The notes below the pieces were generated by a model. It saw nothing but the letters and a program-made list of their open reading frames with translations. It was not told where the DNA came from and ran no database searches. 61,976 nucleotides of DNA from Eubacteriales bacterium (GTDB lineage Bacteria > Bacillota > Clostridia > Oscillospirales > CAG-272), in contig JAZRFR010000031.1 of the NCBI GenBank assembly GCA_045643785.1, forward strand, positions 1 to 61,976, read 5' to 3'. Of the stretch, positions 1,450-22,273 are shown one piece after another. Positions within the stretch are counted from its first letter, which is position 1. Each line of letters starts with the position of its first letter. A program made the translations under genes and the position numbers.

Positions 1450-1450
1450 A

Positions 1451-3279: not shown

Positions 3280-3286
3280 ATCATAG

Positions 3287-3316: not shown

Positions 3317-3326
3317 ATGCCGTATT

Positions 3327-4894: not shown

Positions 4895-4949
4895 AATTCC
4901 AGAGACAATCTCGCGACAGCACAGCGTGGCACCGTGACCTGTGTCCCGC

Positions 4950-5035
4950 AAGCGTCACGTGTGACCGGCCACGGCGTGACAGGTCATGTGTGACCGGCCA
5001 CCGTGTGACAGGACATGTATGACCGGACACCGCGA
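4950..5035 (+). repeat. Three tandem 29-bp repeats, each containing a GGTCA-N4-TGACC-like dyad, in the leader of the 5067 gene
   Basis: The TGACCGG cores at 4962, 4991 and 5020 are exactly 29 bp apart. Units: gcgtcacgtgtgaccggccac / aggtcatgtgtgaccggccac / aggacatgtatgaccggacac. Confidence 0.8.
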
Positions 5036-5066
5036 CAGTTTCAAATATATGAAAAGGAGAGCAGCT

Positions 5067-5855: not shown

Positions 5856-5867
5856 TTCCCCGCAATA

Positions 5868-5906
5868 AACAGAAAATCCACATCGCAAGATGTGGATTTT
5901 CTGTTT
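5868..5906. terminator. Bidirectional rho-independent terminator (3' end of unit B and of the 5067 gene)
   Basis: Stem AACAGAAAATCCACA / TGTGGATTTTCTGTT with loop TCGCAAGA, followed by TTTTCT. Confidence 0.75.
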
Positions 5907-5923
5907 TTCTGTGTCCTTTCGGG

Positions 5924-7123
5924 TCAGGCGCCCGCAGGACGGAAGTTCTCGTAGGTCTTGATATCCGACTCCGAAATGCTGGGCGGAGTCTTCTTGAAGG
6001 CCCGCTCAAACATATCCCGTCGCAGGGGGATGGGGGTACGGCTGTTCTTCTCCTCGATCTCCTCCAGCGCGAAGCGGCAAGCCTCCTCAATGACACCGCA
6101 GAGGTTTGCGGCAGAGTAGTAGCCCTTCTCGGTGAACTCGCCCAACTCGGTGTAGTGGGTAATGTCCCGCTCGGACATCTGCAGAATATCGTCGATGGTC
6201 AGACCGGCCTCCAGCTGGATGCCCTTCAGCTTGCCCTCGATAATGGCGCGCTTGGCAGGCATATCCGGCGGGGGAACGTGTACCAGATGGGAGAAACGCT
6301 TGTAGCGGAGATAGGCCGCGTCAATGATATCGGGACGGTTGGTGGCCGCGATCATGATGCGGTTGTTGCTCTTACCGCCGAAGCCGTTGATGCGCTGCAG
6401 AAGCTCGGTGGTAACGGCGGACTTGTAATCCTTGGTGTCCGAGCTTCTCTTACTGAAGATGGACTCACACTCATCCACGAAAAGCACGGCTCCGTCGGGG
6501 CAGGACTCCAGCTCGTCGAAGATCTGCTTGACGGCCTGCTCGGATTCACCCACGTAGGACTTGAAAATATCCGCAGGGGTGACGATGAACAGGGGCAGAT
6601 TCATGGCGTTGGCGATGGCCTCGGCGAACATGGTCTTACCCGTACCGGGAGCGCCGTAGAGCATCATGCCCAGACCGCCCTGCAGGTGGTAGTACTCCAG
6701 AATATCGGGATTCTGGGCCATGAACATGAAGCTCTTGACCAGCTTCTTGACGCCCTCCAGACCCTTTACGTCATCAAAGGTGGTGGTGGGGATCTTACTG
6801 CTCATAACCGAGCCGTACTCCTTGGCGCGGGCGGCCAGCTTGCGGCTCTCGTCGGCGTAGCGATCGATCTCCTCCTGGCTGACGCACCGCTGGCTCAACG
6901 TAAAGGCGATCTGCGCGGCGTGGGAGTAGTGGGTACGCAGCTCCCGCTTTTCCTCGTCGCGGATATCCTTCTTGTCGTTGCGGCCGTTGAGGATCTTGCG
7001 GATCTTGTTCTTGACTTCCTCGTATTTTACCTTGAGACCGTCAATGGAATCGGCCTCGGGCGCGACGGCGGCATTGGCTGCCTTGGCGGCCTCATCGGTT
7101 GCGTTGGGTTTCGTAATTTTCAT
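5924..7123 (-). CDS. Classic-clade AAA+ ATPase, Vps4/spastin-like, with a helical MIT-like N-terminal domain
   Basis: Walker A GAPGTGKT. Walker B LFVDECESIF. Second region of homology IMIAATNRPDIIDAAYLRYKRF. C-terminal PPSISESDIKTYENF resembles the Vps4/katanin P-S/T-V-S..DL..Y..F tail. N-terminus ..HYSHAAQIAFTLSQRC..EEIDRYADESRKLAARAKEY is MIT-helix-like. Start set at ATG 7123 (RBS GGAAGGAG); the ORF track gives 7147. Confidence 0.88.
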   Translation of the reverse strand: MKITKPNATDEAAKAANAAVAPEADSIDGLKVKYEEVKNKIRKILNGRNDKKDIRDEEKRELRTHYSHAAQIAFTLSQRCVSQEEIDRYADESRKLAARAKEYGSVMSSKIPTTTFDDVKGLEGVKKLVKSFMFMAQNPDILEYYHLQGGLGMMLYGAPGTGKTMFAEAIANAMNLPLFIVTPADIFKSYVGESEQAVKQIFDELESCPDGAVLFVDECESIFSKRSSDTKDYKSAVTTELLQRINGFGGKSNNRIMIAATNRPDIIDAAYLRYKRFSHLVHVPPPDMPAKRAIIEGKLKGIQLEAGLTIDDILQMSERDITHYTELGEFTEKGYYSAANLCGVIEEACRFALEEIEEKNSRTPIPLRRDMFERAFKKTPPSISESDIKTYENFRPAGA

Positions 7124-7150
7124 GTCAGGCTCCTTCCTTGATCCCAAGGA

Positions 7151-7897
7151 TTACAGCAGACCGTCCAGACCGCTGTCGCCGCCTGTGGGTGCGGACTTGG
7201 GAGCTGCGGGAGGCGTGTAGGAGCCGCGGCCGGCATTGCCGCCGCCCTGGCCACCCTGGCCACCCTGGCCATCCAGGATACCTCTGACCATATCCATACC
7301 GCGGCCGGCAGCCGAGGTGGAGGAGGTCTGGGACTTCTTGTTCTTGGCGCGGCTCTTCTCGCGCTTCATGTTCATCTTGTCCATGATGCCCGAAATGCTG
7401 CCGCTCATCTTCTCGTACATGCCCGCGGTCTCGGCGGCCATCTCGATGCTCAGCTTCATCTGATCCAGCATGGTCTTGACCGTCTTGCGGTTCTGGGCCA
7501 TGGCCTTCTTCATCATGAGGCGCTGCTTGAAGGGACTGGTCTGGCGGTTGGCCATTTCCATCATCATGCCGCTACTCATTTCCAGCGAGGTATTCATCAG
7601 ATTCATGGAGTGGAAAATAATCTCGTTGGCCACGTTGAAGGCGGTGATCACCTCGATGATATCCTGCATCTGCAGGGAGAGATCCAGGAAGTTGACGAGC
7701 AGGCTGGTACGCCAGTCGTCCTCACCGTATCTCTGGTAGAAATCGGCGGCCTTGGTGGCCAGCTCCTGCAGCTTGGCGTCGAACTCGCGCTTCTGACGCT
7801 CAAACTTCAGCTTCTGCATGCTCTTATCTGCGGCCTGTTGCATTTCCGACACGGCGGAATCGTTGCTCTCAAATTGCTTGAATGCTTGCTTTGACAT
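7151..7897 (-). CDS. Helical protein, candidate ESCRT-III (CHMP2/Vps2-Vps24-like) subunit with a Gly-rich linker and an acidic Leu-rich C-terminal tail
   Basis: AADKSMQKLKFERQKREFDAKL parallels CHMP2A ALNRAMRELDRERQKLETQEKK. MEMANRQTSPFKQRLMMKKA parallels MGTMNRQLKLPQIQKIMMEFE. Met-rich helices, then a GQGGQGGQGGG linker. Terminal GGDSGLDGLL is MIM-like. Confidence 0.6.
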   Translation of the reverse strand: MSKQAFKQFESNDSAVSEMQQAADKSMQKLKFERQKREFDAKLQELATKAADFYQRYGEDDWRTSLLVNFLDLSLQMQDIIEVITAFNVANEIIFHSMNLMNTSLEMSSGMMMEMANRQTSPFKQRLMMKKAMAQNRKTVKTMLDQMKLSIEMAAETAGMYEKMSGSISGIMDKMNMKREKSRAKNKKSQTSSTSAAGRGMDMVRGILDGQGGQGGQGGGNAGRGSYTPPAAPKSAPTGGDSGLDGLL

Positions 7898-7938
7898 AAC
7901 AGTTACCCCTTTTTTTCAATATAGTGGAATATCCAAAA

Positions 7939-9372
7939 TCAAAGGATATCCGAGAGGAGCGTGTGCTCGCTCTCCTGCTTTTCCTCGGCCCCGGTGTCCA
8001 TAGACAGAAGGGCATCCAGAAGGCTTCCCTCCTCCTTCTCCTCCATGGCGGGAAGATTGGCCTCACGCAGCTCCTCGTTCATCTGGTCGACCTCGGCCAG
8101 ACGCTCCTCGATCTTGCGGATGTTCAGATCACCGTTGGTGTTCATGATGCCGCTCTTGACCATGGTCTCCTGGAGCTGGGCGATACCCTCGGCCACCTCA
8201 TTCGAAGAAGCGTTGTTGTTGATGATGCTGACCAGCTTGGAGCAATCCACGTCTGCAAAGATCGCGTAGATGTGCAGACGGTTGTTCTTCACCATGTTGT
8301 ACAGACGGCGGATGGGCTTCTCAATCTTACGAATGAGCTCGCGGCGTCTGGTAACCTCCTCGCGGGAGACCACGTCGGCCTTGAGGCGCTCCATGTCGTA
8401 CTTGATGTAGTCCTCCTGATCCTTCAGATCCTGCAGGTCGAATTCCGCATCCTCGCGGCTCAACGCGCCGCTCTTGAAGCGGGAAACGATGTCCTGCTTT
8501 CTCCGCTCAATGTCACCCAGACGGGCGCGGCACTCACGGAGCTTTTCGGTGGAGCCGTTGTCACGCATATTCGCGGTTTCCTGGGCGTAGATCTCGCAAC
8601 GGTTCAGGAACATTTCTACGTTCTGGCGGATGCTGACACTCTGAATGGTCTGGGCCAGATCGTCCACGGGAATCTCGTAGCAATCCTGGGGCTTGGCATG
8701 ACGGAGAGAGGGCGTACAGAGCTTCGACCACTGACGGACGGTGCGCTGAATGCCTCGCAGCATATCCACCGAGCTTGCGTCGTACAGGCCGTTGGATCTG
8801 GCCAGCTTGATACGCCAGGAGCGGATTCCCGCAACCACCTCGTTGTAATGCTCGGCCGCCTGCATACTGCTCACGTCGATGACGGATTCCAAGGAATCAA
8901 TGATCTCGTCGATGATCTTGCGGCAGGTCTTCATGTTGGTGGCTTCCATGCCGGTCTGGGCATCGCCTGCGCTCTGCATGATCCGCATGCCTTCCTTGGC
9001 GGACTCCAGATAATCCCGCACGTTTTCACACATGTCGAAGGAGGGACGGTGCTCGCGGCCGGTCTTCATGTTGGCCAGGCACTCCCGCTTCTCCACGCGC
9101 AAGCGCTCGTAAGTCAGGGAGCGGCGATTCTCCTCACCCAGCTTGACGGCGATATCCGTCAAATGCTCCAGGGTCTTCTTCATGTCCTTATTGAAATCGC
9201 TGTTGACACCGCGACGGATCAGGGTATCCATATCCCCCGTGATCTCCTCAAACAGCGCGGCTCTGGCCTCATCCGGGAAGCCTCTTTGCAGGGCCGTTGC
9301 AAATTCCTTGTTATACTTGATCTTGTTCGCGTCCATCGCGGCCGTCAAACGAGCTACGGTTTCACGACTCAT
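7939..9372 (-). CDS. Coiled-coil protein whose C-terminal half is Snf7-like (ESCRT-III), with an acidic Leu-rich tail
   Basis: GDLNIRKIEERLAEVDQMNEELREANLP aligns by eye with yeast Snf7 [31 protein letters not shown]. Tail EEGSLLDALLSMD...HTLLSDIL. ATGA overlap with the upstream gene. Confidence 0.55.
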   Translation of the reverse strand: MSRETVARLTAAMDANKIKYNKEFATALQRGFPDEARAALFEEITGDMDTLIRRGVNSDFNKDMKKTLEHLTDIAVKLGEENRRSLTYERLRVEKRECLANMKTGREHRPSFDMCENVRDYLESAKEGMRIMQSAGDAQTGMEATNMKTCRKIIDEIIDSLESVIDVSSMQAAEHYNEVVAGIRSWRIKLARSNGLYDASSVDMLRGIQRTVRQWSKLCTPSLRHAKPQDCYEIPVDDLAQTIQSVSIRQNVEMFLNRCEIYAQETANMRDNGSTEKLRECRARLGDIERRKQDIVSRFKSGALSREDAEFDLQDLKDQEDYIKYDMERLKADVVSREEVTRRRELIRKIEKPIRRLYNMVKNNRLHIYAIFADVDCSKLVSIINNNASSNEVAEGIAQLQETMVKSGIMNTNGDLNIRKIEERLAEVDQMNEELREANLPAMEEKEEGSLLDALLSMDTGAEEKQESEHTLLSDIL

Positions 9373-10508
9373 ACTTCTTCTCCTCCGCTACATATTTTTC
9401 TTACCAAAGCCTTGGTCGCTTCGGCGATATTCTTTTGCTTCATGCAAAAATAGATGTCGTCGTCATAGAACGTGTAAAAATCGTGAGCTCCGTTCTGCAA
9501 CATCATCTTCAAAAGGTCGGTGCCCGTTCGGTCGTATATGGTACGCTTGACCTTGTCGCGCTTGCCCTGACTGTTCAGGTACTTATGTCCGCCGTTGTTG
9601 TTGAAAAAGAAGATGTAGATCTCCTCGTCATCACTCAACTCGTCCACCATGGTCTCCACCGAATTCTGGGTGGACAAGCGGGTAAACATGGTCTCTCCGT
9701 CGCTGATATGCTTGCTTCGGATGTAGGACAGCAAAACCTTTTTGCCTGTCGTCAGCCAGTACAGCGCGTGGGGGATCTTCAGCTCCTTGCCCGGGAACGG
9801 CTTTTTGTAGATCTTGATCAGATCCCCGACGGTGAGCTTGTAGACACCGAACAGCGGCGCCCGTTGCTTATCCATGCAGGAGCAGAACACGTTGAATACG
9901 CGATCCGCAAAGCTGATGCGCTCGTCCGCTCCCGACGAGGCGGGCATATCCACGTCAATACCCAGGGCGTTCTGTACCCGATCAAAGTTACTCCGCAGAT
10001 CGTACAGCTCGTTGTCCCGCAGCTCCGAGGGAGTGGCGCAGAGCATCCGCAGCATGGAGTAGGCCGTCAGCTTGCGCAGCTCGTCCCATTGAACCGGCGG
10101 AAGTCCCGGCTCGGTCTCCACGCTGGTGATACTGCTGTAGCACAGCGTGCTGTAGTAATTGTACGCGATCTTGAAACGGGTGCTTTCGCTGCACTTCGTA
10201 CCCACGTAGTCCTTATCGAAGAAGTACGCCAGTCGGGCCAGTGCCTTGGGGTTACCCAGCTGTGCCGATTGACGGCACAGCCGAGTCGCTTTGTCGATCA
10301 GCTCCGCATCCGCGGTGCCGTCGTGATTGAACAGCCAGTTTCCGTACAGGATCTCGGATTGACGGAACAGCTCCTCGTTATCGTGGGTCACCACGAAGCG
10401 ATCCACCCGAGTCACGAGGGAGTGGCGGCACGCAGGACAGGACCAGGAGCCGTCGTACAGCTCCAACGGTGTGACTTCCTTGCCACACTTTGTGCATTTC
10501 ATTTCCAT
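9369..10508 (-). CDS. Zn-ribbon protein with Sel1-like repeat(s), unknown function
   Basis: N-terminus MEMKCTKCGKEV...WSCPACRHSL (CxxC...CxxC). CRQSAQLGNPKALARLAYFFDKDYVG is Sel1/TPR-like. AGGAGG RBS. Confidence 0.6.
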   Translation of the reverse strand: MEMKCTKCGKEVTPLELYDGSWSCPACRHSLVTRVDRFVVTHDNEELFRQSEILYGNWLFNHDGTADAELIDKATRLCRQSAQLGNPKALARLAYFFDKDYVGTKCSESTRFKIAYNYYSTLCYSSITSVETEPGLPPVQWDELRKLTAYSMLRMLCATPSELRDNELYDLRSNFDRVQNALGIDVDMPASSGADERISFADRVFNVFCSCMDKQRAPLFGVYKLTVGDLIKIYKKPFPGKELKIPHALYWLTTGKKVLLSYIRSKHISDGETMFTRLSTQNSVETMVDELSDDEEIYIFFFNNNGGHKYLNSQGKRDKVKRTIYDRTGTDLLKMMLQNGAHDFYTFYDDDIYFCMKQKNIAEATKALVRKICSGGEEV

Positions 10509-10526
10509 AGCGTTCCTCCTTCCTGC

Positions 10527-13500
10527 TTAGCCTTGGGTTTCGGGCGGGGTCGTAATATCGGTTCCGACCTCGGTTTCGGGCCCGGTTTCCACCTCGCGGA
10601 TCACAAAATCGTTGCTCACGTAATCAAACTCGTAGTTCCGAGCCTTGGCAGAGTCTTTGATCGTAACCGTCAGGGTATACGTGCCGGGATCCTTGGCGGT
10701 CATAGCAGATCCCCCAAAGGTCGCCTCAAAGTCGTTTTTGCTGTCACCTGCGGCAAGACCAAGCATGTTAAATTTGAAGTCACCGCCTGTGGTTCCGTCG
10801 TAGTCACGGTCGGGGGCGATGGCCGAAACCGTCACGGGGCGCTTGGTGATCTCGCAGGTCACTCCGCTCACGTTGAAGTTATAATTGGTATGAGCGGCAA
10901 ACGACACGTTCACGGAATACTCGCCCGCGTTGATGGCCTGCGCCACGGGACGGCCGTTTGCGGTCCAGGTGGGCGTACCCAGCTGAGCCACGGTTTCGCC
11001 GTCGACCAGCCCCTCAACCGAGAAGCTCAAGCCCGTCAAGGCTTCGCCGTCATAGGTTTTGTCCGGGATGGGATCAACGGTAACCGTCAGCGTTTTCTTC
11101 GTGATCCTGCAGGTCGTCCCGTTCACGCTGATTTCATAGTTGGGATGGACGGCAAACTTAGGTTGCACGGAATACGTGCCCGCATCTTTCGCCTCAGACA
11201 CGGGGCGATCGTTTGCATTCCAAACGAACCACTGGGGCTCGCCAAGCTGATCCATCGTTTCGCCCGCTACCAATCCTTTGACGGAGAAGGTAAAGTCTGC
11301 CAGAGGCTTGCCGTCGTATTCCTTTTCGATGGGATCAACGGCAACCTGCACCTTTGCCTTCTTGATCGTAAGCTTAGCCGCGCGGCCGTTGTTGATGTTC
11401 AAGGTATAGTTATCCGGATTGGTGTTGGTGAAGCTCAAATACAGCTCATAGCCATTGCCGGCATCCTTGGCCGTCGTCGCAGGGCCCGTAAAGATGGGCT
11501 CGCCCAGAACGTCCACCTCGGCATCGCTTCCCTGCAGACCGTTCACCGTATAGCTGAACTCTCCGCCTTCCGTACCGTCATAGATACGCTCCAGATTGTT
11601 TACGCTTACGGTAAGCGTGTGTTTGCTGATTGTAAAGTGTACGGATTCGATCAACTGAATGCTGTAATTCGGATTACCCGGCAACTCCAGCGTCAGGTCA
11701 TATGTGCCGGCGTTCACCGCACCAACCGCATCTCCGCCGTATATGGGATCTCCGAGATCCGTCTTCTTATCTCCGCCAACCAGACCGTTCACGGAATACT
11801 CGAAGTCGCTCGCACCGGCGGGCTTGGCATTATACGTCTTACCGAGGTTTTTCGACAGGGTAACCGTGATGAGCTTGGGGATCACCGTCAGCTTGCCGTC
11901 CTCGTACGTAATGTCGTAGTTCTCGGTTTTTTCAAGGGTAGGCAGTTGAACCGCCAATGTGTACTCGCCCACATTTCTGATGACGTTTTCATCGGTTACA
12001 TCCACATAGTAATGAGGAGAGCCGATTCTGCCGCGGTCAGCGTCAATGACACCTTCTACTGCAAAATCAACGCAGGTGCGATATGCCGTCGTGCCGTCGT
12101 AAACCTTGGTGCCGTCCAGCGCCGTTACGGTAGCGGCCTTGCGGAGAATGACTACTTCATCGGTTACATATGTAAAATCATAGTTTTTGGTTACGTCGTT
12201 GTCGTCCAGTCTCACCGACAGCGTATGCGTACCGGCGTTGGGATTGTTCGTCGCAGAGCCGCTATACATAGGATCGCCCAGATCCGGCTTCTGATCTCCG
12301 CCCACCAGACCGACCACGTTAAAGTCAAAGTTGGACCGATCATAGCAGGTGCCGTCGTAGATCTTTTCGTTGTTGAGGATGATGGCCGTCACGGTAGCAG
12401 GCGCCTTTTTGATGGTCAGCTTGCCCTTCGTAACGCGCACATCGTAGTTGCCGAATTTCTCTGCGTCCCGGGGCACCACCGTGGCATCGATCATCCACTC
12501 GCCCGCGTCGGTATTCTCCAACGCCTCACCCTTGTACTGCAGGTCAAGAATGTTCTTAATGTCATTTGCGTCAGCCGACACGAGTCCGCTCGGCTTAAAC
12601 GTAAACTCATACTCGGGGAACGTATATCCGTCGTACGTCTTGCTCTTGGCATCGATCACAACCGTCAGGGGCTTCTTGGTGATGGTCAGGGTTCCTTCGG
12701 TGATCTCCAGGGTGTAGTTCCCCGCCTTTGCACCCGTATGGTCAACGGTAGCTTCGAACGCATACGGTTGGGATCCTACGTTCACGACGCCCACGGCATC
12801 GCCCACGTATTGAACGTTGGTGAATATTTCGTTTTCCCGATCCGCGCCCTGAAGGCCGATCACCGTGTAGGAAAAGCCCGTATAGGCCTTGCCGTCGTAC
12901 TCCTTCTTGGCATTGTCCATTTTGATCGTCAGCTTTCTCGGCTTGATCGTGAAGGTGCTTTGGGTATTACAATTATCCGCGAAGTAGTAGTTCCCGTCCT
13001 CGGGAAGGGATACCGATACGGTGTAACCATCTCCCACGTTCACTTGTCCACCGGAGTAGATCACGCTACGGAGCAACGCTTCCCGATCTGCCTCGATACA
13101 GTTCTCCAAGCGATTGATTCGACGGACCTGCTCGCCGGCGTTATAGACAAACTCAGCGGTACTGTTCCAACTAATGGAGGAAATGGGTCTCGGGGTGATC
13201 TCAAAGGTGGTTTCACTCTTTGTCAACGTGTAGTTGGGATCATTCGTTGTGACAGTTACGCGGTAGTCTGTACCCGCATTCTTACGTCCACCTTCATATC
13301 GAAGGGGAACTTCGTCACTGCCAAGGGGCTGCACCGTCGCCTCGGGGTACTGCTCCTTGCCGTCGTAAACGAAGGAGCGTTCATCACTCCAGCTCACACT
13401 CAACGGATATGGAGTTACCACCACCGTCTGCGAAGCATCGCTCTCCGCGATCTTATACTTGGTCGCGGTATCGCCGAGCAGCTCAATGGTAATGACGTAC

Positions 13501-15392: not shown

Positions 15393-15417
15393 TTCGAATC
15401 AGTCCGTCCTTCCCGCT

Positions 15418-17106
15418 TTAATGACGCTTCTCAGGCTTCGGGATCACGCCCGAATCGTTCAGCGTCAGCTTGTCGAAGAAGTACTTCTTATCTCCGACGA
15501 AAAAGATGAGTCTGTCTGCGTTTTCAAAGCAGTATTTCTTTTGGAACACCGACATCACGCGCAGAGACAGCGGCAACATCTGAGCGTACCGTCTGTAGTT
15601 CTGCGTATGGGTCGCGCTCGTCTCTCCCATCTGCACCGCATCCATGGCAGAGGCGCAGAATTTGCAGTAGAACTGGGAATTCAGGTTGTCCGCCGTGTAG
15701 CTTCTTCCGCAAAGACGGCAGTTCGTGGTATCTTCGGCCACGACTCGCAGCGTCTGTGTATCGAAATTCAGGAGAGGCGTATAGGCCACCTCGCCGTCCT
15801 CGCAGTGGTGCAGCACCTCGGGATAGGGGCAATCCGCGCACTTGTAGCGCGTACGGCCGTGATCCTCGAAGGCAACCGTATTGCATCTGCAACGGTAGCG
15901 GACGCACTCGATGTTGCGGCGAGTCAGCTCAGAGCAGCTGATGGGGAAGAAATGCTCGGCGAAGGGGCTTTCCCTCTGAATCATCTCCAGCTGCTCGGCC
16001 GTAAGTCCCAGATCGGACTTGGCGGTATTGATACGGATCTGCTTGGTCGCGCCTGTTTCGGGCGATACGCAGGTAATGACGTTACGCTCGATCAGACGGT
16101 CGCGCGCTCCGCCGCAACGGCAGGTCATGGTGATGACGCCATCCTGGGTGATCTTGGCGAAAAACGCCTTGTGGCCGTCCACGTACACGTCGAAAACGGG
16201 ATCGACCCATTGGATGTGGCTGATGCCCAGCACCTTGATCTTCTTGCACGCCAGCTGAACCTCGTCCTGGGGCTCACCGGACATCAGATCATCCAAAGTT
16301 GCCAGGTCGGTGGCATTCGTAACCAGAATGCCTTCGGAGAAATCGCGATCCATCTCACCCTTGAGCAGTTTGTCCAGGGAGTTGAGCACGTTATCCACGA
16401 TCTCGGTCTCGGTGTCGGCGTCCGCGCCCTTATCGGCGGCGCCTCGCTGGCTGACGATACTGCTCACGTAGGAGTCGATCTCGGCGGCCTCGGACGTCAG
16501 CACCGTGCGGAATTCCTTCCCTGTCTTGCGGAAATAGACCTTGCACAGAAGGGGGCGAGGCTCACCCACACCGCTGAAGACCTCCATACGCAGAGACACG
16601 GCGTAGATATCCTCCACGCTGTCCTTCTGCCCGGCGGTGGCTACGCGGGTGACCCGCAGTTTTAGGCCGTCGGCCACCCGCTGGATGACCTTCTGCTGTT
16701 CCTTGATCTCGGCGTCGTCGCGGGACATCTCGTTCTGTATGAACTCGACCAGCGAGAACTGCTTGTGGTAGTTCGTGGAGACGAGCTCAAGCAGGTTGTG
16801 CCAGATACCCATAACGCTGTCGTTTTCAGCGCCGCGGAAGCCTCTGAACCAGCTGGCTCCGCTGGGCAGCATACCCTCCACGGCACCGCTGTCGATGGTC
16901 GACACGTCACCCACGTACTCGAAAATATACTGCTCGGTCTCGATGACACGGTTGTCGCGACAAGCCTGAATAATGGAACGGTCAATACACCCGCTGTTTA
17001 CCAGCGCGCAAATGCTTCGGAAAGCATCCCGGTACTGTCGACCGATCTTCACATATACTTTATCGTTGTTCATCACAGCAACCTCATTCATTTCTGTCCG
17101 CATCAA
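15418..17106 (-). CDS. Cys-rich (multiple Zn-ribbon-like CxxC pairs) protein, unknown function
   Basis: C-terminal half has TCRCGG, CVRYRCRCN, YKCADCPYP, NCRLCGRS and YCKFCAS. Start uncertain (ATG 17106, 17091 or 17073). It overlaps the SNF2 stop at 17084, suggesting translational coupling. Confidence 0.65.
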   Translation of the reverse strand: MMRTEMNEVAVMNNDKVYVKIGRQYRDAFRSICALVNSGCIDRSIIQACRDNRVIETEQYIFEYVGDVSTIDSGAVEGMLPSGASWFRGFRGAENDSVMGIWHNLLELVSTNYHKQFSLVEFIQNEMSRDDAEIKEQQKVIQRVADGLKLRVTRVATAGQKDSVEDIYAVSLRMEVFSGVGEPRPLLCKVYFRKTGKEFRTVLTSEAAEIDSYVSSIVSQRGAADKGADADTETEIVDNVLNSLDKLLKGEMDRDFSEGILVTNATDLATLDDLMSGEPQDEVQLACKKIKVLGISHIQWVDPVFDVYVDGHKAFFAKITQDGVITMTCRCGGARDRLIERNVITCVSPETGATKQIRINTAKSDLGLTAEQLEMIQRESPFAEHFFPISCSELTRRNIECVRYRCRCNTVAFEDHGRTRYKCADCPYPEVLHHCEDGEVAYTPLLNFDTQTLRVVAEDTTNCRLCGRSYTADNLNSQFYCKFCASAMDAVQMGETSATHTQNYRRYAQMLPLSLRVMSVFQKKYCFENADRLIFFVGDKKYFFDKLTLNDSGVIPKPEKRH

Positions 17107-19918
17107 GCACCAGCTTGATGTCGGTCACCTTTTTGGCTTCCTTCAGAAGATTGATACAGAAGCCCTTGCCGTCGTCGTGGTTGAAGTCCCACGAGGCGCG
17201 CAGATACGCCGCGAAGGTTCGCGCGACGATGGGGCGAAGCTTTCCGCGCTTGCGGGAGGACATACCGCGGCAAACGGGGCAATCCGCCTCCCAGCGGTCG
17301 TTGAACTCAATGACGTGGGGCTTGGGACTGCACAGCGCCATGTCGCAGGTGGAGCAGGCGGAGATTCCGTTGGTGCCGATATAGGGACGGCACTTTTCGG
17401 GGCAGATATCCTGACGGGAGCAACGACTGCACAGGGTGTACAGATCCTGATCCCCGATGTTCTTGTTTTTGAGGAACGCATCCACGGCGGGACAGGTTCC
17501 GGGGCGGAAGCGGCCGCAATGGGCCATGGCGCAGATCTTGCGGCAGTACAGGCGGCGGTCGCCCTTGTCGCCGGTATTACACATGATGCTACGACCCGTG
17601 TTGGTGTTCGCAATACACATGTAACCCGATACGTCGGACACCGAGCGAGCGAACACGCTGGCGCACTGATCGCACTTGAAATCGTATACGCTGATCTCCG
17701 CCATTTCGGTGCCTTGAGGCCGATCGGGGCCCACGCACTCCGACGTAGCGGTACAGAAGAGGTTCCCGTTCTTTTTGTGCGCCTCGTAGTCCTCCTGGGA
17801 GTACAGCTTGACCTGACCGCAACGGTCGCAACGAACCGCCACCATGCGGTCGTTGTTACTACCCGCGATGATGGTCGCATCGCCGCTGTTACTGGACATC
17901 AGACCGATACGGGAGAAGTACAACAGAGCAAAGCCCTCCAGGCGGTTCATATCCGCCAGGGAGTAAATGGTCACGTCGTTCTTCTGACCCAGACGGAAGA
18001 TTCGACCGATACGCTGATCCATGGCCAGGGGGTCGGGGGTGACCTGGAAGTTGATGATCACGCTACCCGACTGCAGGTTGACACCCTCGGTAAAGGAGGG
18101 ATCCTTGACCACCAGCACGGCGTTGGAGCGCGCCTCAAATTCTGCCAGAGTCTTCTCTTTATTGTTGGCGGTACCCACCACCAGACGGTTCGCATACGCG
18201 GGATCCTTCTGCATATCCGCCAGAAACGCGTCGTGAACCAGATCCTTCTTTTTCAGCTCGTAGTCGAAGAAGATCAGCACGCGCTCGTTTTCGTGGCGCT
18301 TGAGGATGCGCTTGGTCTCCTGCAGCTTGTCGTCATAGGAGGTCTCCGCCTCGAACAGCGGCCGCAGCTCGCAACGCATTTTTCCGTCGGGAGCGAGGGT
18401 CATCTGATCGCGGTAATACAGGATGAAATCCTTCTTGGGGAACTGACTCTCGTCCACGGTCTCCGCGAAAATGCTACAGATGATATCCGAGTAGAAGCGG
18501 TGAACCGGCAGGTCGCGGTGATGCTCCTTGGCGTATTCGTCCAGGGTAACCGTCTCGCCGCAGGCCTCTCCGCGGTGATCCACGGGCGTCACGTACAGGG
18601 GCGGCTCCTGCATACGGGTGCAATCCACCCGCAACAGATTACCGTACCAGTCGCCCACCGTGATCTTCTCTTTCCGCAGGGCGGGATAGAACAGGGAGTG
18701 AACCAGCTTCTTCTCCTTGGTGACCAGCACCGTGGAGGGCTGGCGGATCATGATGGAGCGCAGCACACCGTTGTGGTAGGCGGCGGCCACCTGCCGCATG
18801 ATCTTCTGGTTGATCTCGTCGTTCTGGGGCAGAGCCAAAAATTCATCCACCCGAAGCTGCTGTTCACCCTCGGTGAGCTTCTCGAAATTCGTCAGGGACA
18901 GATTCTCCCCCGCGATGTACTCCTTAAAAGGCTTGGAGTAGTTGAGCATCAGCTCGGCCTTCTTGACCCGCTTGATGAACTCCATGACCGTGGTAGCGCC
19001 GCGGCACACACGCTCCTTGTAGTACGCCTTTTCCTGGTTGTACTCATCCGAGTGGTGCATATCCTCCTTCTCCTCGAAGTCCTCGGGATGGCCGCCCTTG
19101 CAACGGATGAAATACCAGAGGCGGAACATATGGTCCAGGTTACCCGAGTGGGGGGTTGCAGACAAAAGCAGGCAGTAGGTCACGTTGGCGCGCTTCTTGG
19201 TCTCCATCATCATGGAGAGGAGCTTCATGGCCTTGGCGTACTCGCCCTCCTCCTTACACAGATGGTGGGCCTCGTCCACCACGATGACGTCGAACAGAAG
19301 CTTGGACAGGCTGTTATCCCAGTGGATAAAGTCCTCGGTCTTGACGATAATGGGACGGCTGGGACGGTTTTGCGCGTCAAAGGTAACGCCTGCGTCCGAG
19401 AAATCCAGCGAAGAACGGACGTCGCCGCCTGCCTCCAGCAGAACTCCCTTACCGAGACCAAAGCGCTGCTCCATAACCTCGATCCAGTTATCGTACACCT
19501 GCCCGGGAACCACCAGGAGCATGGACTTGATCTTACCGCGCACGGCCAGCTCGCTGAGGATCACGGCCGCCTCAAAGGTCTTACCGCTACCCACCACGTC
19601 GGCCAGCAGACCGAAGCCTCGCAGATCCTTCAGAAAAGCGATAGCCGCGGCGCTCTGGTGCTTGAAAATAACCGAGCGATCCACGTGCTTGGTGCGGTCG
19701 TAGGGGATGCCGTAGGCGCCGCTCATATCGGTCTGCACGTACTGGCCCAGATCGATCTTCAGAGAGTCAAAATCGTCGTAGCGATCCAGCTCCTCTACGG
19801 CCTTATTCATTTCGTAGATGGTCTTGTTGTACTGCTTCTTGGTGCGCGCAATATCACTGCGCTGGTTGTCACGGTCAAAGCAATGGTCGTCGAACATGAA
19901 ATAGTAGGTCTTCGACAT
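17084..19918 (-). CDS. SNF2-family helicase/translocase with a ~250-aa Cys-rich C-terminal extension
   Basis: Motif I LADVVGSGKT. Motif II VIVVDEAHHL. Motif III LLLSATPHSGN. Motifs V and VI TEGVNLQSG / QRIGRIFRLGQ. The C-terminus has more than 25 Cys in CxxC-type pairs (RCDRCG, KCDQCA, CSRCS, CSTCD, CPVCRG). Confidence 0.9.
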   Translation of the reverse strand: MSKTYYFMFDDHCFDRDNQRSDIARTKKQYNKTIYEMNKAVEELDRYDDFDSLKIDLGQYVQTDMSGAYGIPYDRTKHVDRSVIFKHQSAAAIAFLKDLRGFGLLADVVGSGKTFEAAVILSELAVRGKIKSMLLVVPGQVYDNWIEVMEQRFGLGKGVLLEAGGDVRSSLDFSDAGVTFDAQNRPSRPIIVKTEDFIHWDNSLSKLLFDVIVVDEAHHLCKEEGEYAKAMKLLSMMMETKKRANVTYCLLLSATPHSGNLDHMFRLWYFIRCKGGHPEDFEEKEDMHHSDEYNQEKAYYKERVCRGATTVMEFIKRVKKAELMLNYSKPFKEYIAGENLSLTNFEKLTEGEQQLRVDEFLALPQNDEINQKIMRQVAAAYHNGVLRSIMIRQPSTVLVTKEKKLVHSLFYPALRKEKITVGDWYGNLLRVDCTRMQEPPLYVTPVDHRGEACGETVTLDEYAKEHHRDLPVHRFYSDIICSIFAETVDESQFPKKDFILYYRDQMTLAPDGKMRCELRPLFEAETSYDDKLQETKRILKRHENERVLIFFDYELKKKDLVHDAFLADMQKDPAYANRLVVGTANNKEKTLAEFEARSNAVLVVKDPSFTEGVNLQSGSVIINFQVTPDPLAMDQRIGRIFRLGQKNDVTIYSLADMNRLEGFALLYFSRIGLMSSNSGDATIIAGSNNDRMVAVRCDRCGQVKLYSQEDYEAHKKNGNLFCTATSECVGPDRPQGTEMAEISVYDFKCDQCASVFARSVSDVSGYMCIANTNTGRSIMCNTGDKGDRRLYCRKICAMAHCGRFRPGTCPAVDAFLKNKNIGDQDLYTLCSRCSRQDICPEKCRPYIGTNGISACSTCDMALCSPKPHVIEFNDRWEADCPVCRGMSSRKRGKLRPIVARTFAAYLRASWDFNHDDGKGFCINLLKEAKKVTDIKLVLDADRNE

Positions 19919-19956
19919 ATCTATCTTCCTTTCGGTTTCCGATCAAACGGCGGATC

Positions 19957-21942
19957 TTACTGATTCGTCGTAACGCTCATGGCCTTCATGGAGATGCGGA
20001 ATTCGATATCCGCCGCGCTGACGCGCTCCACCTGAGCGTTGGAATGATACTTGGCGTATATGGGGAAACGGTTTTTGACGGTCACGTTGCTGAAGAAGGG
20101 GGTTGCGGAGCCGTCCTTCTTGTTGACCAGGAAGCCCTCTTCAAAATACAAGGCACAGGTCTTGGCGCTGAAAAGAGATACCCGCTCGTTTTTATAGTAG
20201 AAATGGATCTCGGACTCCCGTCCGCCGGCCACCACCCGCAGGTCAATGACCTCCACGGCGGGGCGGCGGTCGTCGTCGCCCGCGTCAGCTACGATGAGCC
20301 AATCCTCCTCATAGGTCAGCTTGCTCGCATAGCGATGAGCCGCGATCTCGTCGGTGCTGATGATGGTGGAGAACAGCTCGTCGCCCTCCAGTTTAGCCAG
20401 TTCCTCGTAGGTCAGGCTGATGGCGCCCTCCATGGAGAAGCGGTTCTCCTCGTTCTCCAGAATGTCGCCGCGATCCGCAAACAGCTTCAGATGCTTGCGG
20501 TAATTGCCATGATACAGCCACGTGCCGTAGGAGTAGGACAGAACGGCGTCCACCGAGTAATCCTTCATGGCCACCACCGCGCCGCCCACCGAGGCCGCGT
20601 AGGTGGAGGCCTCGTGGTTCTGGATGTGGTAGGGATCCAGGTCCTGTGTCTCGGTGTCAAAGGTCAGAAGCTGTACGAGACCGTGCTCGGCCTGAAGAGC
20701 CTCCCGCAAATAGGGGACAAGACCTCTCGTCTCCACCAAGCCGCCCGCGATCACCGCCTTGCGGATGTCCCGGTTACCGGGACGGGACAGCTCCTCCAGG
20801 AGGTATTCCCGCAGCTGGTGAGCCACACCTCGGTCATCGTCGGTACCCACGCAGTGAGCGAAGGTGGATTCGCTGATGATACGCTGTACCAGGGTATCTC
20901 GGTGAATGCACACGGGCACGCCGTCCTTAAAGATGCCGCGTCCCGCCAGGGGCATCACCATCTTGGCCTTTTTAATGTCCTTCATCAAGAGGTAGCGGTC
21001 CTCGTGCAGACCCTCCTCGTAAATGTGTCCCGAAGCGCCTGCTGAGGGAGTTCCCACGGTCTCGCGGTCGTAGATGCCTCGCTCCAGATAATCCAGAAGC
21101 ACCTCGTCGATATGGCTACCGCCCACCTCCAGGAGGGGCATATGTCCGTCGGCGCTGTCCACCAGCAAGCCCATCTTGCCGACTTGCTTGTTGGCGCCTA
21201 TGTTGCTGAACCAGGCCTTACAGACCGAAACCGTCTCGTCACCCATGTCGAAGACCAGCACCCGCTCGTCCTTTTCCACCCATCCACGGTGGAAGGCGTA
21301 GATACCCAGGGCCTGGGTCGAGGTCAGAACCTTAGTGGGGGCGACGCCGAAGGCCACCTCCACCAGACGGCTGACCTCCGCCACGAATTCCGATCCCTGC
21401 TTGGGGGGGTGTACGATGGCGATATGGGTCAGGGGCGCGAACTCAATGCCCGTCCGCTCCGAAAGCTTCCCCACCAGCTCGCCGATCCGCTTGCGGATAT
21501 GTAGGAAGTAGCCCTCGCACACGCTCTGCGGCGTGTGACGGGGATCCGTAAACACCAGCTTCCGATTCACGAAATACTGGAAATCCGCCTCGTGTCTCAT
21601 GCGCTCGGGGAAAGTGAACACAGGGAAATAGTGACCGCCACGGTAGTACTCCAGGTTGCGCTTCTCCACCGCCGCGTCCTCGTTTCGGGTGACCATGGAC
21701 AGCGCGGTCTTGATCTTGATAACCGTGGAGAAATTATGACTCGAGCCGTATTCCAGCTCGTCGGCATACAGCCAGCTGTCGGTCTCGGTATTGTAGAACG
21801 CCGCCGCGGGAAAAGCGATTTGGTTGATCAAATCGGGAACCATCAGCTTTCCGCTGAAGTCGCACCCCTCGTGGTTATACGCGAAAGACACCTTCATGGT
21901 GTCGTTACCCAGATCCAGACCTATATAAATATCCGTAGCCAT
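19957..21942 (-). CDS. Hsp70/actin-fold (ASKHA) ATPase with a ~200-aa C-terminal extension
   Basis: Phosphate-1 IYIGLDLGNDTMKV. Phosphate-2 VLVFDMGDETVSV. Adenosine motif AVIAGGLVETRGLVP. RBS AAGGAGAG. Confidence 0.8.
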   Translation of the reverse strand: MATDIYIGLDLGNDTMKVSFAYNHEGCDFSGKLMVPDLINQIAFPAAAFYNTETDSWLYADELEYGSSHNFSTVIKIKTALSMVTRNEDAAVEKRNLEYYRGGHYFPVFTFPERMRHEADFQYFVNRKLVFTDPRHTPQSVCEGYFLHIRKRIGELVGKLSERTGIEFAPLTHIAIVHPPKQGSEFVAEVSRLVEVAFGVAPTKVLTSTQALGIYAFHRGWVEKDERVLVFDMGDETVSVCKAWFSNIGANKQVGKMGLLVDSADGHMPLLEVGGSHIDEVLLDYLERGIYDRETVGTPSAGASGHIYEEGLHEDRYLLMKDIKKAKMVMPLAGRGIFKDGVPVCIHRDTLVQRIISESTFAHCVGTDDDRGVAHQLREYLLEELSRPGNRDIRKAVIAGGLVETRGLVPYLREALQAEHGLVQLLTFDTETQDLDPYHIQNHEASTYAASVGGAVVAMKDYSVDAVLSYSYGTWLYHGNYRKHLKLFADRGDILENEENRFSMEGAISLTYEELAKLEGDELFSTIISTDEIAAHRYASKLTYEEDWLIVADAGDDDRRPAVEVIDLRVVAGGRESEIHFYYKNERVSLFSAKTCALYFEEGFLVNKKDGSATPFFSNVTVKNRFPIYAKYHSNAQVERVSAADIEFRISMKAMSVTTNQ

Positions 21943-22007
21943 GCCGCTCTCCTTCTTTTGTGCAGTAACAATTATTATATCTGCAATTATATTTATATAT
22001 AAATATT

Positions 22008-22036
22008 ATTATACCACCTCGGCACTTTTTTGTCAA
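22008..22036 (-). promoter_or_regulatory. Consensus sigma-70 promoter of unit B
   Basis: Minus strand reads TTGACA (22036-22031), 17-nt spacer ending in TGg, then TATAAT (22013-22008). It lies in a strikingly AT-rich 330-bp gap, ~65 nt upstream of ATG 21942. Confidence 0.65.
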
Positions 22037-22230
22037 TATCCGTGGCATTTTATTTATAGATAGAAATTCGCGTCACATTTTGTTCATTTTGTTAAAAAAG
22101 CAAGGAACATCAAGGCGTTCCCTGCTACCGCGGCGGAAAAATGCGAACCCAACACCACAACGCTTCGAAACGCCGATGCCCCGTCAGCCGTTTTGGGTAA
22201 CGTACCAAATTCCTTTTTAATACGGACATC

Positions 22231-22265
22231 GTAAAATAAGCGGCGGGCATTTCTGCCCACCGCTT
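22231..22265 (-). terminator. Rho-independent terminator of unit A
   Basis: Minus strand has AAGCGGTGGGCA GAAA TGCCCGCCGCTT followed by ATTTTAC, immediately after the stop at 22274. Confidence 0.7.
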
Positions 22266-22273
22266 AAGGTGAA

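Follow-up and report, generated by a model that had tools for sequence, protein, structure and literature searches.

The window analysed here is the whole of contig JAZRFR010000031.1 (61,976 nt; Eubacteriales bacterium, assembly GCA_045643785.1). Eight open reading frames (g1-g8), all on the minus strand, are packed as one unit at 5924-21942 (Table 1). The junctions from g1 to g8 are +38, -23, +25, +18, -4, +41 and +27 nt, as originally described, and the second becomes +10 with the ATG at 17073 as the start of g3, probably the true one according to homologue alignments. Such alignments also point to the ATG at 7123 as the probable start of g8, giving a protein of 399 aa. The promoter claimed upstream of g1 matches the sigma-70 consensus at 12 of 12 positions and carries a TGn extension (extended -10); over the 18 kb covered (5000-23000) it scores best and is the only site of its kind, and it is strong and constitutive-looking. 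The g1 ATG is preceded by a AGAAGGAG ribosome-binding site. At the other end of the unit, the hairpin described as a strong terminator is present and is a probable bidirectional terminator, but on the minus strand it has only a moderate U-tract. The tight packing and conservation as a unit agree with the proposed single transcription unit. GC content is 0.55-0.58, the same as in the remainder of the window, as expected from the host-like composition first noted; there is likewise no sign of a recent insertion in the window, and in other species the operon is flanked by housekeeping genes.

Table 1. Positions of the eight genes and of the signals at the borders of the operon.
Feature	Position	Strand	Description
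g1	19957..21942	-	661-aa divergent Hsp70-type (ASKHA-fold) ATPase, predicted
g2	17084..19918	-	944-aa SNF2-family ATPase
g3	15418..17106	-	562-aa ORF; new family
g4	10527..15392	-	1621-aa membrane protein; Pfam MBG_2 x9 + YDG
g5	9369..10508	-	379-aa protein, N-terminal Zn-ribbon
g6	7939..9372	-	477 aa; putative N-terminal adaptor domain + C-terminal helical module
g7	7151..7897	-	248-aa protein; new family
g8	5924..7147	-	classical-clade AAA+ unfoldase, Vps4_C-type C-terminal helix
Promoter, sigma-70-type	22008..22036	-	TTGACA, 17 nt, TGgTATAAT
Terminator-like hairpin + T-run	22099..22126	-	divides operon from upstream 2121-aa gene
Second terminator-like hairpin	~22232-22262		also between operon and upstream 2121-aa gene
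Hairpin, 18 pairs	5867..5906	.	between convergent g8 and ORF at 4986-5855

An Hsp70/actin fold for g1, as first proposed, is supported by sequence comparison: the protein aligns with the DnaK profile in hhalign (E 1e-5, 233 columns, probability 82%), Pfam HSP70 is weakly matched by 9 of 28 family members, and a PDB profile search returned Hsp70 nucleotide-binding domains alone (E 0.035). It carries the motifs IGLDLGNDT, FDMGDETVSV and IAGGLVET, followed by a C-terminal domain of ~200 aa that matches no recognised fold. The SNF2 label of g2 is confirmed by Pfam matches to SNF2-rel_dom (PF00176), ResIII and Helicase_C, with the motifs GSGKT, DEAH and QRIGR intact; the C-terminal ~270 aa are Cys-rich with several Zn-binding motifs. 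This is the best-conserved core protein (42-83% identity between loci). The homologues of g3 fall into 49 clusters, none of them named, and g3 has no match in Pfam, NCBIfam, PADLOC or PHROG. It consists of an N-terminal domain of no recognised type and C-terminal Zn-ribbons, including an invariant CxDCPYPE, and the Cys-rich label holds, with 12 Cys invariant in the alignment and an eL43-type Zn-ribbon as the sole PDB profile signal.

The sole membrane protein of the unit is g4, which has a basic N-terminal tail, ~5 TM helices (residues ~22-165) and ~1450 aa of MBG_2/YDG repeats that are predicted to be extracellular. The MBG-repeat and five-TM description is borne out by the Pfam matches and by the N-terminal hydropathy pattern, which is kept in all 31 homologues (918-1795 aa). 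A giant extracellular protein of adhesin type is atypical for a defence system. For g5, described as a Zn-ribbon/Sel1 protein, the first half of the label stands on a weak Zn_ribbon_8 match (E 0.003), the ribbon being missing in one subclade, but the second does not: no family member matches Pfam Sel1, and the Sel1/TPR-like stretch falls short of significance, Sel1 proteins coming out best in the PDB profile search at E 0.16 only. The C-terminal domain of g5 has conserved RAPLFG, YFFN..GGH and F.DDDI motifs.

The alignment of g6 shows ~105 N-terminal residues common to the whole family, followed in the window by a helical module with an acidic tail (LLSDIL); a PDB profile search gave coiled coils and nothing else. 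In two relatives a Zn-ribbon and a TIR domain stand in place of this module, the TIR (TIR_2) calls being based on precomputed Pfam matches, one of them marked weak, and on motif reading. One of these TIR proteins (locus L056) aligns with g6 residues 6-107 at 39% identity (E 5e-21) and shows no relation past that point. On these alignments g6 is best described as a putative adaptor with a swappable C-terminal module.

The g7 family comprises 162 representative clusters, all of 230-260 aa, and a distant member was found in the same operon context. The protein opens with a long helical hairpin (residues ~2-57 and 62-116) and closes with a conserved C-terminal tail, GDSGLDGLL in the window and ..DI(D/S)DIL in relatives; between the two lie a linker rich in Lys, a short helix that is conserved (199-214) and a disordered stretch rich in Pro and Ala. 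The AF2 model from a 119-sequence alignment has a pLDDT of 74.9, with the hairpin above 90. The AAA+ label of g8 is secured by the Pfam domains AAA (1.6e-32) and Vps4_C (2.6e-6), and Walker A (GAPGTGKT), Walker B (DECE) and the pore loop (YVG) are present behind a conserved, helical N-domain of ~100 aa. In the PDB it matches the D2 domain of VAT/p97 best, its nearest PADLOC relative is IetA, and against NCBIfam CDC48, PAN and CdvC it scores under the cut-off in every case.

All 31 species-level genomes recovered, every one a Clostridia MAG, share the g1-g6 order, as do more than 15 metagenome contigs, with protein identities as low as 21-30%. The distribution is sparse, at 31 matches among 185,579 species genomes as estimated from one peptide pattern and incomplete MAGs. 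The carriers are uncultured gut Clostridia and point to Christensenellales-type lineages, and two loci (L055 and L027) hold decayed copies. A fortuitous juxtaposition of unrelated genes, a concern of the original prediction, is for all practical purposes ruled out by the conserved order in 31 species and many metagenome contigs; in addition, the g1, g3 and g7 families were found in no context but this operon.

The operon neighbours include UvrAB, GlnA-III, carbamoyl-phosphate synthase, the dnaK operon and SpoIIR, and no defence-island or mobile-element context was seen around the loci examined. In three Christensenella loci the operon follows dnaJ at a shared position, a pattern suggestive of vertical inheritance, and g3 was absent from IMG/VR, PLSDB and INPHARED. 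These housekeeping flanks, the post-dnaJ synteny and the lack of g3 in phage and plasmid sets run against a role in defence. Compared with the closest relative of the window, identity rises from 49% in g4 (repeats 43-55%), the fastest-evolving member, through g1 (65%), g3 (72%), g5 (78%), g2 (83%), g6 (87%) and g7 (88%) to g8 (93%), a gradient of rates such as an arms race would give.

The core of the operon comprises g1-g5 and the ~105 N-terminal residues of g6: the Hsp70-type and SNF2 ATPases, the Zn-ribbon proteins g3 and g5, the g4 stalk and the adaptor domain. The 3' end is modular, and the eight-gene set initially taken as the unit is one of six-, eight-, nine- and ten-gene forms. The modules are the helical C-terminus of g6, TIR, an HExxH protein with an Hhe-like helicase-nuclease, and g7 with the AAA+ unfoldase. 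Most relatives have ten genes, the additional ones encoding the HExxH protein and a 1,500-aa DUF4011 helicase-nuclease (C7; DUF4011, AAA_11/12 and REase_MTES_1575 domains) that matches PDC-S37 (1e-119), Hhe (4e-54) and MkoA in PADLOC. The effector-type modules differ even among loci that share at least 50% g3 identity with the window: L057 has ten genes, L002 has eight like the window, L053 and L058 have six, and L054 and L056 have six with TIR. In an NJ tree of g2, the eight-gene forms appear at two separate positions among ten-gene forms, implying repeated loss of the nuclease module. The window has a reduced variant from which both the nuclease and the HExxH gene have been lost. Pfam, PADLOC and a scan of the window revealed nothing recognisable as a nuclease, NADase or toxin, which tells against a role in defence; the earlier remark that no nuclease lies nearby holds here, but only since this lineage lost the module.

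No match in PADLOC, NCBIfam, Pfam or the literature names the operon as a system, in agreement with the original failure to assign it to a named defence, secretion or division system, and five of the eight families are without a significant Pfam or NCBIfam match. Because relatives swap a TIR domain and a helicase-nuclease into its end, the likeliest reading of the operon is a new defence system against phages or plasmids rather than a membrane machine of ESCRT type. Among the three roles first proposed, defence is the one to which the TIR and Hhe-like proteins of relatives lend strong support. In our judgement, the balance of the evidence slightly favours a new, chromosomally encoded immune or conflict system that has several ATPases, is anchored in the envelope and can exchange its effectors. 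In such a system, g4 would set the complex at the envelope and sense or mark where phage or foreign DNA meets the cell; the SNF2 motor g2 and the Zn-ribbon proteins g3 and g5 would engage incoming DNA, and g1 would gate assembly or activation through ATP-dependent conformational work. The g6 adaptor would join the core to the effector that a given locus carries. In the window variant, the output may come from the helical part of g6 with g7 and the g8 unfoldase, the conserved tail of g7 being a likely handle for the g8 N-domain.

It is unlikely that the operon serves ESCRT-like membrane remodelling, vesiculation or repair, with g7 (and g6) polymerising, the AAA+ protein disassembling the polymer and g4 acting as trigger. 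The confident hairpin of 2 x 55 aa in g7, with its further helices, disordered linker and conserved tail, would suit such a role, as would the adjoining classical AAA+ protein with a Vps4_C helix and conserved helical N-domain, the persistence of this pair in distant variants and the presence of a membrane protein in the unit. However, the description of g6 and g7 as ESCRT-III-like finds no support in Pfam, PDB profiles or Foldseek. PspA_IM30 and Snf7 are matched by 0 of 119 g7 family members, PDB profile searches with g7 returned no ESCRT-III, PspA or Vipp1, and Foldseek gave no significant match for either predicted structure model; an hhalign test of g7 was without power, since its PspA-versus-Snf7 control likewise gave no match. 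We regard g7 as a probable new helical-hairpin family without detectable ESCRT-III or PspA homology. No MIT signal was found in the g8 N-domain alignment, so the membrane scission and repair roles first suggested are analogies of layout. In addition, g8 is nearer to Cdc48/VAT (D2 domain) than to Vps4, the C-terminus of the adaptor g6 is replaceable by TIR, and the g7-g8 module is accessory, as both genes are missing from six-gene forms and g8 from L034. Two DNA helicases and a nuclease of the same operon would also be left unexplained.

A similarly low probability is given to a lineage-specific machine for the giant surface protein, acting in adhesin biogenesis, anchoring or turnover or in DNA uptake or transfer coupled to the surface; the ATPases would then serve as chaperones of assembly and as DNA motors. 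The flanks and syntenic position within Christensenella, an order stable across deep divergence, the constitutive-looking promoter, a g4 that is always present and large, and the absence from phages and plasmids are all consistent with such a machine. Against it, the carriage and exchange of TIR and Hhe-like nuclease modules mark out a conflict system rather than a biogenesis pathway; Pfam shows no secretion ATPase, sortase, signal peptidase or channel component; and few species have the operon, some copies of which are decayed. Cargo of an integrative or conjugative element, serving that element in, for example, entry exclusion or establishment, is very unlikely. A tRNA-Gln and an HTH_17/sigma-r4 protein do lie 15 kb upstream of the operon in the window, a T4SS coupling protein lies 10 kb upstream in the most divergent variant (L051), and flanks vary between species, but no integrase, relaxase or repeat boundaries adjoin the operon in the window or at most loci, GC is uniform, and the plasmid, phage and viral collections gave 0 matches to g3.

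Compared with known systems, g7 and g8 resemble ESCRT-III/Vps4 in an apparent polymer/unfoldase logic, homology not being detected. A regulatory role for Hsp70-family NTPases in conflict systems whose effectors vary has precedent in the literature (PMC7159879; PMC11090510). As a point against defence, large DUF4011 proteins can also be core genes, for example in P. aeruginosa (PMC10250203). The helicase-nuclease of the ten-gene forms has the defence protein Hhe and the candidate PDC-S37 among its relatives, and the closest relatives of g2 are the defence helicases DrmD, BrxH (BrxHI/II models), DpdE and ZorD, with scores far under all family cut-offs.

Eight head-to-tail ORFs on the minus strand, here numbered g1 to g8 from the promoter-proximal end, form the operon as originally predicted. 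At its head is a perfect TTGACA-17-TATAAT promoter with a TGn extension, the sole 12/12 site in a scan of 18 kb, with a AGAAGGAG ribosome-binding site downstream; at its end, an 18-bp hairpin, a probable terminator, lies between g8 and a convergent gene. Both signals had been called correctly. The junction lengths also matched the earlier figures, except that homologue alignments move the start of g3 from the TTG at 17106 to the ATG at 17073, so that the -23 overlap becomes a spacing of +10. Homologue alignments also back a g8 start at 7123. Two terminator-like hairpins follow the end of the 2121-aa gene upstream, and thus the eight genes are read as a separate unit. GC content is uniform, in line with the host-like composition first noted, and Rfam found no RNA elements other than tRNA. 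Long antisense ORFs were rejected as shadow ORFs of the coding strand. Such ORFs outscore the real genes in longest-ORF calling at several loci, and are a trap for naive annotation.

Coordinates of features in the window and in related loci (L numbers), with the variant forms of the operon
Feature	Location	Strand	Remark
Promoter	22036-22008		head of unit
Terminator hairpin	5867-5906		end of unit
Giant predicted surface proteins, 2121 and 2477 aa	22274-28639, 28655-36088	minus	directly upstream
411-aa protein, N-terminal HTH_17 (excisionase-like), C-terminal sigma-70 region 4	36665-37900	minus	
tRNA-Gln(CTG)	38529-38604	minus	adjoins 411-aa HTH_17 protein
Membrane protein, C-terminal ribosomal uL15 (L27A)-like domain	4986-5855	plus	right after AAA+ gene
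uL15-domain protein, related locus	L035 18528-19769		
Antisense shadow ORF, 1984 aa	9435-15389	plus	opposite g4
Antisense shadow ORF	16973-19963	plus	opposite g2
Antisense shadow ORF	7924-9453	plus	opposite g6
Ten-gene form	L057		
Eight-gene form	window, L002		
Six-gene forms	L053, L058		end after g6
Six-gene forms	L054, L056		TIR_2 in g6-position protein
Truncated copy	L055		stops after g4
Small-gene trio	L054 19678-21346; L056 381-2044		
Operon adjoining hrcA-grpE-dnaK-dnaJ	L023, L026, L030 (~1-4900), L027 (17766-21598)		Christensenella-type loci
T4SS coupling protein (TraG/VirD4 type)	L051 1-532		
Unrelated conserved cluster	L041-L047 (e.g. L042 3581-10715)		

Among the neighbours, the two giant surface proteins carry N-terminal signal or TM segments with Big_6 and weak Ig-like matches, a C-terminal TM anchor being present in one of them. 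Neither is conserved beside the operon in other species, and both were rejected as parts of the system. The HTH_17 protein and the tRNA could mark an island boundary, and no integrase was seen. The uL15-domain gene is convergent with the operon in the window and co-directional in L035, the two proteins being 43% identical over the C-terminal 130 aa. Outside the window it was seen in L035 only, and it too was rejected as a component.

The gene neighbourhood is conserved. A search with g3 gave 49 homologue clusters, all unnamed, and a pattern scan, in which prevalence is estimated from one peptide pattern and one genome per species, gave 31 loci, all of them in Clostridia MAGs (including Borkfalkia, Christensenella, Christensenellaceae, Alloclostridium and Protoclostridium). 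With the eight proteins as queries, tblastn recovered g1 to g6 in that order wherever the locus was long enough to contain them. Families g1 and g7 were found solely in this operon context: even the g1 relative at 21% identity, the most distant one, precedes a SNF2 gene, a gene of 580 aa and an MBG giant, and a g7 relative at E 1.8e-5 is located in the same type of operon. Chance juxtaposition of the eight genes is ruled out by this conserved order and by the context-bound g1 and g7 families. The distribution of the system is sparse, and decayed copies occur. Compared with its closest relative, the window has identities of 49% for g4, 65% for g1, 72% for g3, 78% for g5, 83% for g2, 87% for g6, 88% for g7 and 93% for g8; the surface protein and candidate sensors are the fastest-evolving, and the motors the slowest. 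A mobile-element origin was rejected, as no relatives of g3 were found in the viral, plasmid and phage collections IMG/VR, PLSDB and INPHARED. A T4SS coupling protein is encoded ~10 kb upstream of the most divergent variant (L051, g1 21%), which hints that at least one variant may lie in or beside a conjugative element.

For five of the eight protein families Pfam and NCBIfam gave no significant match, and no internal paralogy was found (g1 with C6, one of the extra genes of ten-gene relatives, g6 with g7, g3 with g2, and others). As a single sequence g1 has no Pfam or PDB match. The g1 family profile, however, aligns with DnaK (hhalign E 1e-5, 233 columns, including the phosphate-2 and adenosine motifs), pairing the DxGGG/FDMGEE, GG.D.D and GG motifs; in a search of PDB it retrieves Hsp70 nucleotide-binding domains only, and nine of 28 family members have a weak Pfam HSP70 match. 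Residues D10, G12, K17, D232, G234, G400 and G401 are invariant or near-invariant in the family, and g1 has the phosphate-1, phosphate-2 and adenosine motifs of an Hsp70 nucleotide-binding domain. On the strength of the DnaK alignment and the PDB profile and Pfam HSP70 matches, which bear out its first description as an Hsp70/actin-fold protein, g1 is assigned as a divergent Hsp70-type ASKHA ATPase. Chaperones of the DnaK/HscA type also have a beta-sandwich substrate-binding domain with a helical lid, and work with J-domain and GrpE partners. In g1 the alignment with DnaK ends at the nucleotide-binding domain, the C-terminal 200 aa have no match by Pfam or PDB profile, and there is no J-domain or GrpE gene within the operon. 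In Christensenella-type loci the operon adjoins hrcA-grpE-dnaK-dnaJ (downstream of dnaJ in three Christensenella loci); this adjacency may be coincidence, or may be relevant to a g1 without its own J-domain or GrpE partner.

The second protein, g2, is a SNF2 ATPase by clear Pfam match. Its best models are the defence helicases DrmD, BrxH, DpdE and ZorD, and it ends in a Zn-ribbon region instead of a nuclease. The Cys-rich g3 has 12 invariant cysteines in the family alignment and is a new family, with only a Zn-ribbon signal from PDB. The description of g4 as a polytopic MBG-repeat protein is borne out by clear Pfam MBG_2/YDG matches and ~5 N-terminal TM helices, which are present in 31/31 homologues examined; g4 is the sole membrane protein of the unit. 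For g5 the proposed N-terminal Zn-ribbon is weakly detected, but the Sel1-like stretch falls below significance and was discarded.

The eight genes had been taken to be the whole unit, but most loci carry two more genes after g6. C6 (~650 aa) has an invariant C-terminal HExxH motif (VCHECYHAFQH), and C7 (~1,500 aa) combines DUF4011, AAA_11/AAA_12 and a C-terminal REase_MTES_1575, with matches to the PADLOC models PDC-S37 (1e-119) and Hhe (4e-54) and also MkoA. C6-anchored loci have ten genes, g1-g6, C6, C7 and homologues of g7 (24-30% identity) and g8 (55-68%). In the NJ tree of g2, which carries no support values, eight-gene forms are interspersed with ten-gene forms at two separate positions, one taken by the window and L002, the other by L010. 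Because eight-gene forms are split across this tree, the C6-C7 pair has probably been lost more than once; the eight-gene form is a reduced variant. The window has no trace of C6 or C7, with a gap of 41 nt between g6 and g7, so that the absence of a nuclease holds for this copy.

Further forms of the 3' end are seen among operons with a g3 at least 50% identical to that of the window (see the table). Two loci end in a g6-position protein that shares only the first ~105 g6 residues (39% identity, E 5e-21); past that point it has a Zn-ribbon, then a helical region, and at the C-terminus a TIR domain assigned from precomputed annotations and a reading of the typical motifs VFVAYSSKD and IELPYV; no TIR domain was found by Pfam in the g6 of the window. 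Since the TIR proteins keep only the g6 N-terminus, g6 is interpreted as an adaptor domain joined to an output module that can be exchanged. From these comparisons of gene content, C6-C7 and g7-g8 are likewise assigned as accessory modules; at L034, g7 is present and the AAA+ gene absent. Only the TIR-bearing variants come with a conserved set of three small genes (of 241-242, 107 and 175-189 aa), which follows the operon in one locus and precedes it in the other. The 175-189-aa member has a CxxC Zn-ribbon, and the trio has no similarity to g7.

Loci L041-L047 hold an unrelated conserved cluster in the order 266-aa gene, 637-aa gene (weak HSP70, LeoBC), HerA/DUF87-type ATPase of ~900 aa, WHH/colicin-DNase toxin and 92-aa gene, with a Sel1-repeat protein and a MoxR ATPase nearby. 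A DUF3920-like region at the C-terminus of the toxin resembles the HExxH domain of C6. The cluster looks like a separate toxin or conflict system.

Both g6 and g7 had been described as ESCRT-III-like, and this was not borne out: no link to ESCRT-III was found for either by Pfam or by PDB profile searches, and none of 119 g7 relatives matched PspA_IM30 or Snf7 in Pfam. (Comparison of g7 with single PspA and Snf7 sequences by hhalign had no power, as the positive control failed too.) The g7 family has 162 representative clusters, all of 230-260 aa. A first AF2 model of g7 from 26 sequences was poor (pLDDT 55), and an AlphaFold model with a 119-sequence alignment reached pLDDT 74.9. In the latter, confidence is high for a hairpin made of two helices of 55 residues each and for a short helix at 199-214; the middle region is less certain and the tail disordered. 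Foldseek, proposed earlier as a check, returned nothing for either model. Eight- to ten-gene forms share a conserved sequence at the very C-terminus of g7, ..DI(D/S)DIL / DSGLDGLL. As modelled, the hairpin would be compatible with an ESCRT-III fold.

The label of g8 as a Vps4-like AAA+ stands in part. Pfam finds AAA and Vps4_C, but MIT was detected neither by Pfam nor when a profile of the N-domain alignment was run against PDB, and g8 scores higher against Cdc48 and PAN models than against CdvC (NCBIfam CdvC 122 against a cut-off of 650). In PDB it matches the D2 domain of Cdc48/VAT best; the Walker motifs, YVG pore loop, Vps4_C helix and a conserved helical N-domain are intact or present. 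ESCRT-III/Vps4 systems have a Snf7/PspA-fold polymer and an ATPase of MIT, single AAA and Vps4_C, whose N-domain is bound by a C-terminal MIM-type tail on the polymer subunit. The g7-g8 pair resembles ESCRT-III/Vps4 (Cdv) and PspA in that a ~240-aa hairpin protein with a flexible linker and a conserved C-terminal tail adjoins, as in ESCRT-III/Vps4, a single-ring classical AAA+ with a Vps4_C helix and helical N-domain. It differs in that neither sequence, profile nor Foldseek comparison links g7 to Snf7, PspA or Vipp1, and in that the pair is accessory, in an operon with DNA helicases, with no MIT detected in g8. The pair appears to be a polymer-or-substrate plus unfoldase module, and that it is a true ESCRT-III/Vps4 analogue seems improbable.

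The system appears to be categorically new, and the function proposed here is drawn purely from comparative genomics. That it is an immune or conflict system is judged to have slightly better than an even chance. Prokaryotic immune and conflict systems are organised in this way, as a conserved core to which TIR, helicase-nuclease, metallopeptidase-like and AAA+ modules are interchangeably attached, and the defence-helicase models of g2, the IetA-like g8, the sparse spread, the decay and the rate gradient point the same way. Such a system could use g4 as an envelope sensor or anchor, with foreign DNA engaged by the SNF2 and Zn-ribbon proteins and activation gated by the Hsp70-type ATPase. Against defence are the housekeeping flanks, with no island or element signature, the syntenic position of the operon within Christensenella, the absence of g3 from the viral, plasmid and phage collections, and a window variant without a recognisable toxic effector. 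In a more specific version, the system would be a new immune class with a giant surface sensor, gating by Hsp70 and SNF2 proteins and an ESCRT-III/Vps4-type membrane output from g7-g8, in which a g7 polymer would be remodelled by g8 via the conserved g7 tail, acting on the membrane at the infection site. This version is considered a long shot; if true, g7-g8 would be without precedent in bacteria as an ESCRT-III partner with its own Vps4-like ATPase, recruited for immunity.

If immune, the operon would represent an architecture without a named relative, joining an extracellular giant, an Hsp70-type ATPase, a SNF2 motor and at least three interchangeable outputs. The five new protein families (g1, g3, g5, g6 and g7) are in a testable context, and the six-, eight- and ten-gene forms and the TIR forms are a natural deletion and swap series for telling sensor, adaptor and effector apart. 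The g7-g8 pair is relevant to whether bacteria pair an ESCRT-III-like polymer with a Vps4-like unfoldase, and a positive answer would matter because Vps4-like partners of ESCRT-III are apparently absent in bacteria according to a recent review (PMC7619361). If not immune, a conserved ten-gene machine joining a surface adhesin with DNA motors is equally unexplained. The Christensenellales-type gut bacteria from which the system comes are linked to host health, and to our knowledge their phage biology is almost unknown.

The original prediction that the operon belongs to no named system was upheld: PADLOC, NCBIfam, Pfam and PHROGs gave only generic sub-cut-off SNF2 and AAA matches for the eight proteins, and the gene set was not found in literature on Hsp70 with SNF2, AAA+, TIR or DUF4011, or on bacterial ESCRT-III with Vps4. 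DISARM, BREX and Dpd are similarly large multi-gene systems with several NTPases, and their DrmD, BrxHI/II and DpdE are the best sequence models of g2 (1e-27 to 1e-32), although all scores are far under equivalog cut-offs (DrmD 112 bits against 610). DISARM consists of the DrmA helicase, DrmB (DUF1998) and DrmC (PLD), with DrmD and a methylase added in class 1, and BREX of the PglZ phosphatase, BrxC ATPase and PglX methylase. Unlike these systems, the operon has no methyltransferase, PglZ, BrxC, DrmA, DrmB, PLD or deazaguanine genes. Membership of DISARM was rejected with only a sub-cut-off DrmD-like g2 and no DUF1998, PLD or methylase, and that of BREX with PglZ, BrxC and PglX absent and only the BrxHI/II-like helicase similarity of g2. 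Hhe and the PADLOC candidate PDC-S37 are single-gene DUF4011 helicase-nuclease defence proteins. The C7 of relatives has the same layout of DUF4011, SF1 helicase and C-terminal endonuclease, but sits between g6 and g7 of a larger operon and not alone; the window has no such gene and was not assigned there. Nor does the window belong with TIR-effector (Thoeris-like) systems, as it has no TIR, and TIR_2 is found on the g6 adaptor in two relatives only.

Hsp70-family ATPases occur in other multi-gene conflict systems with variable effectors including TIR. Kaur et al. (2020) described MoxR-vWA ternary systems and GTPase systems with HSP70 and tubulin (PMC7159879), and CoCoNuT type III, with a McrB-type GTPase bearing an NxD motif and McrC (DUF2357), carries the Hsp70-like CnuD (PMC11090510); NTP-dependent gating has been proposed for such Hsp70-bearing systems (PMC7159879, PMC11090510). 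These published systems (CoCoNuT III, GTPase-tubulin-HSP70) centre on GTPases, whereas the present operon has no GTPase, tubulin, MoxR, vWA or McrB/McrC, and its g1 family is distinct and found in this operon only. With no GTPase and no DUF2357 among the eight proteins, CoCoNuT type III was rejected; the systems of Kaur et al. were excluded too. IetAS consists of the AAA+ IetA and the protease IetS. Here g8 matches IetA models (E 4e-30), but there is no IetS protease, NCBIfam IteA scores 93 against a cut-off of 510, and the similarity is generic among classical AAA proteins.

Zorya combines the ZorAB membrane complex (MotA/ExbB-like plus OmpA-like), ZorC and the SNF2 helicase-nuclease ZorD, and structural work of 2024-25 reportedly points to envelope-localised surveillance of incoming DNA. 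Membership was rejected, as every defining feature fails: there is no ZorA/ZorB motor, with no MotA_ExbB or OmpA match among the eight proteins, and g2 is not ZorD, matching its models over the helicase core only (E 3e-13; NCBIfam 19 bits against 1500). The operon also differs in its five-TM g4 with a giant extracellular repeat stalk, in having no ZorC, and in the additional Hsp70-type ATPase, AAA+ and Zn-ribbon proteins. As an analogy for how the system might work, Zorya is nevertheless the closest, in that both encode an envelope-embedded component and a cytoplasmic SNF2-family motor in a single operon.
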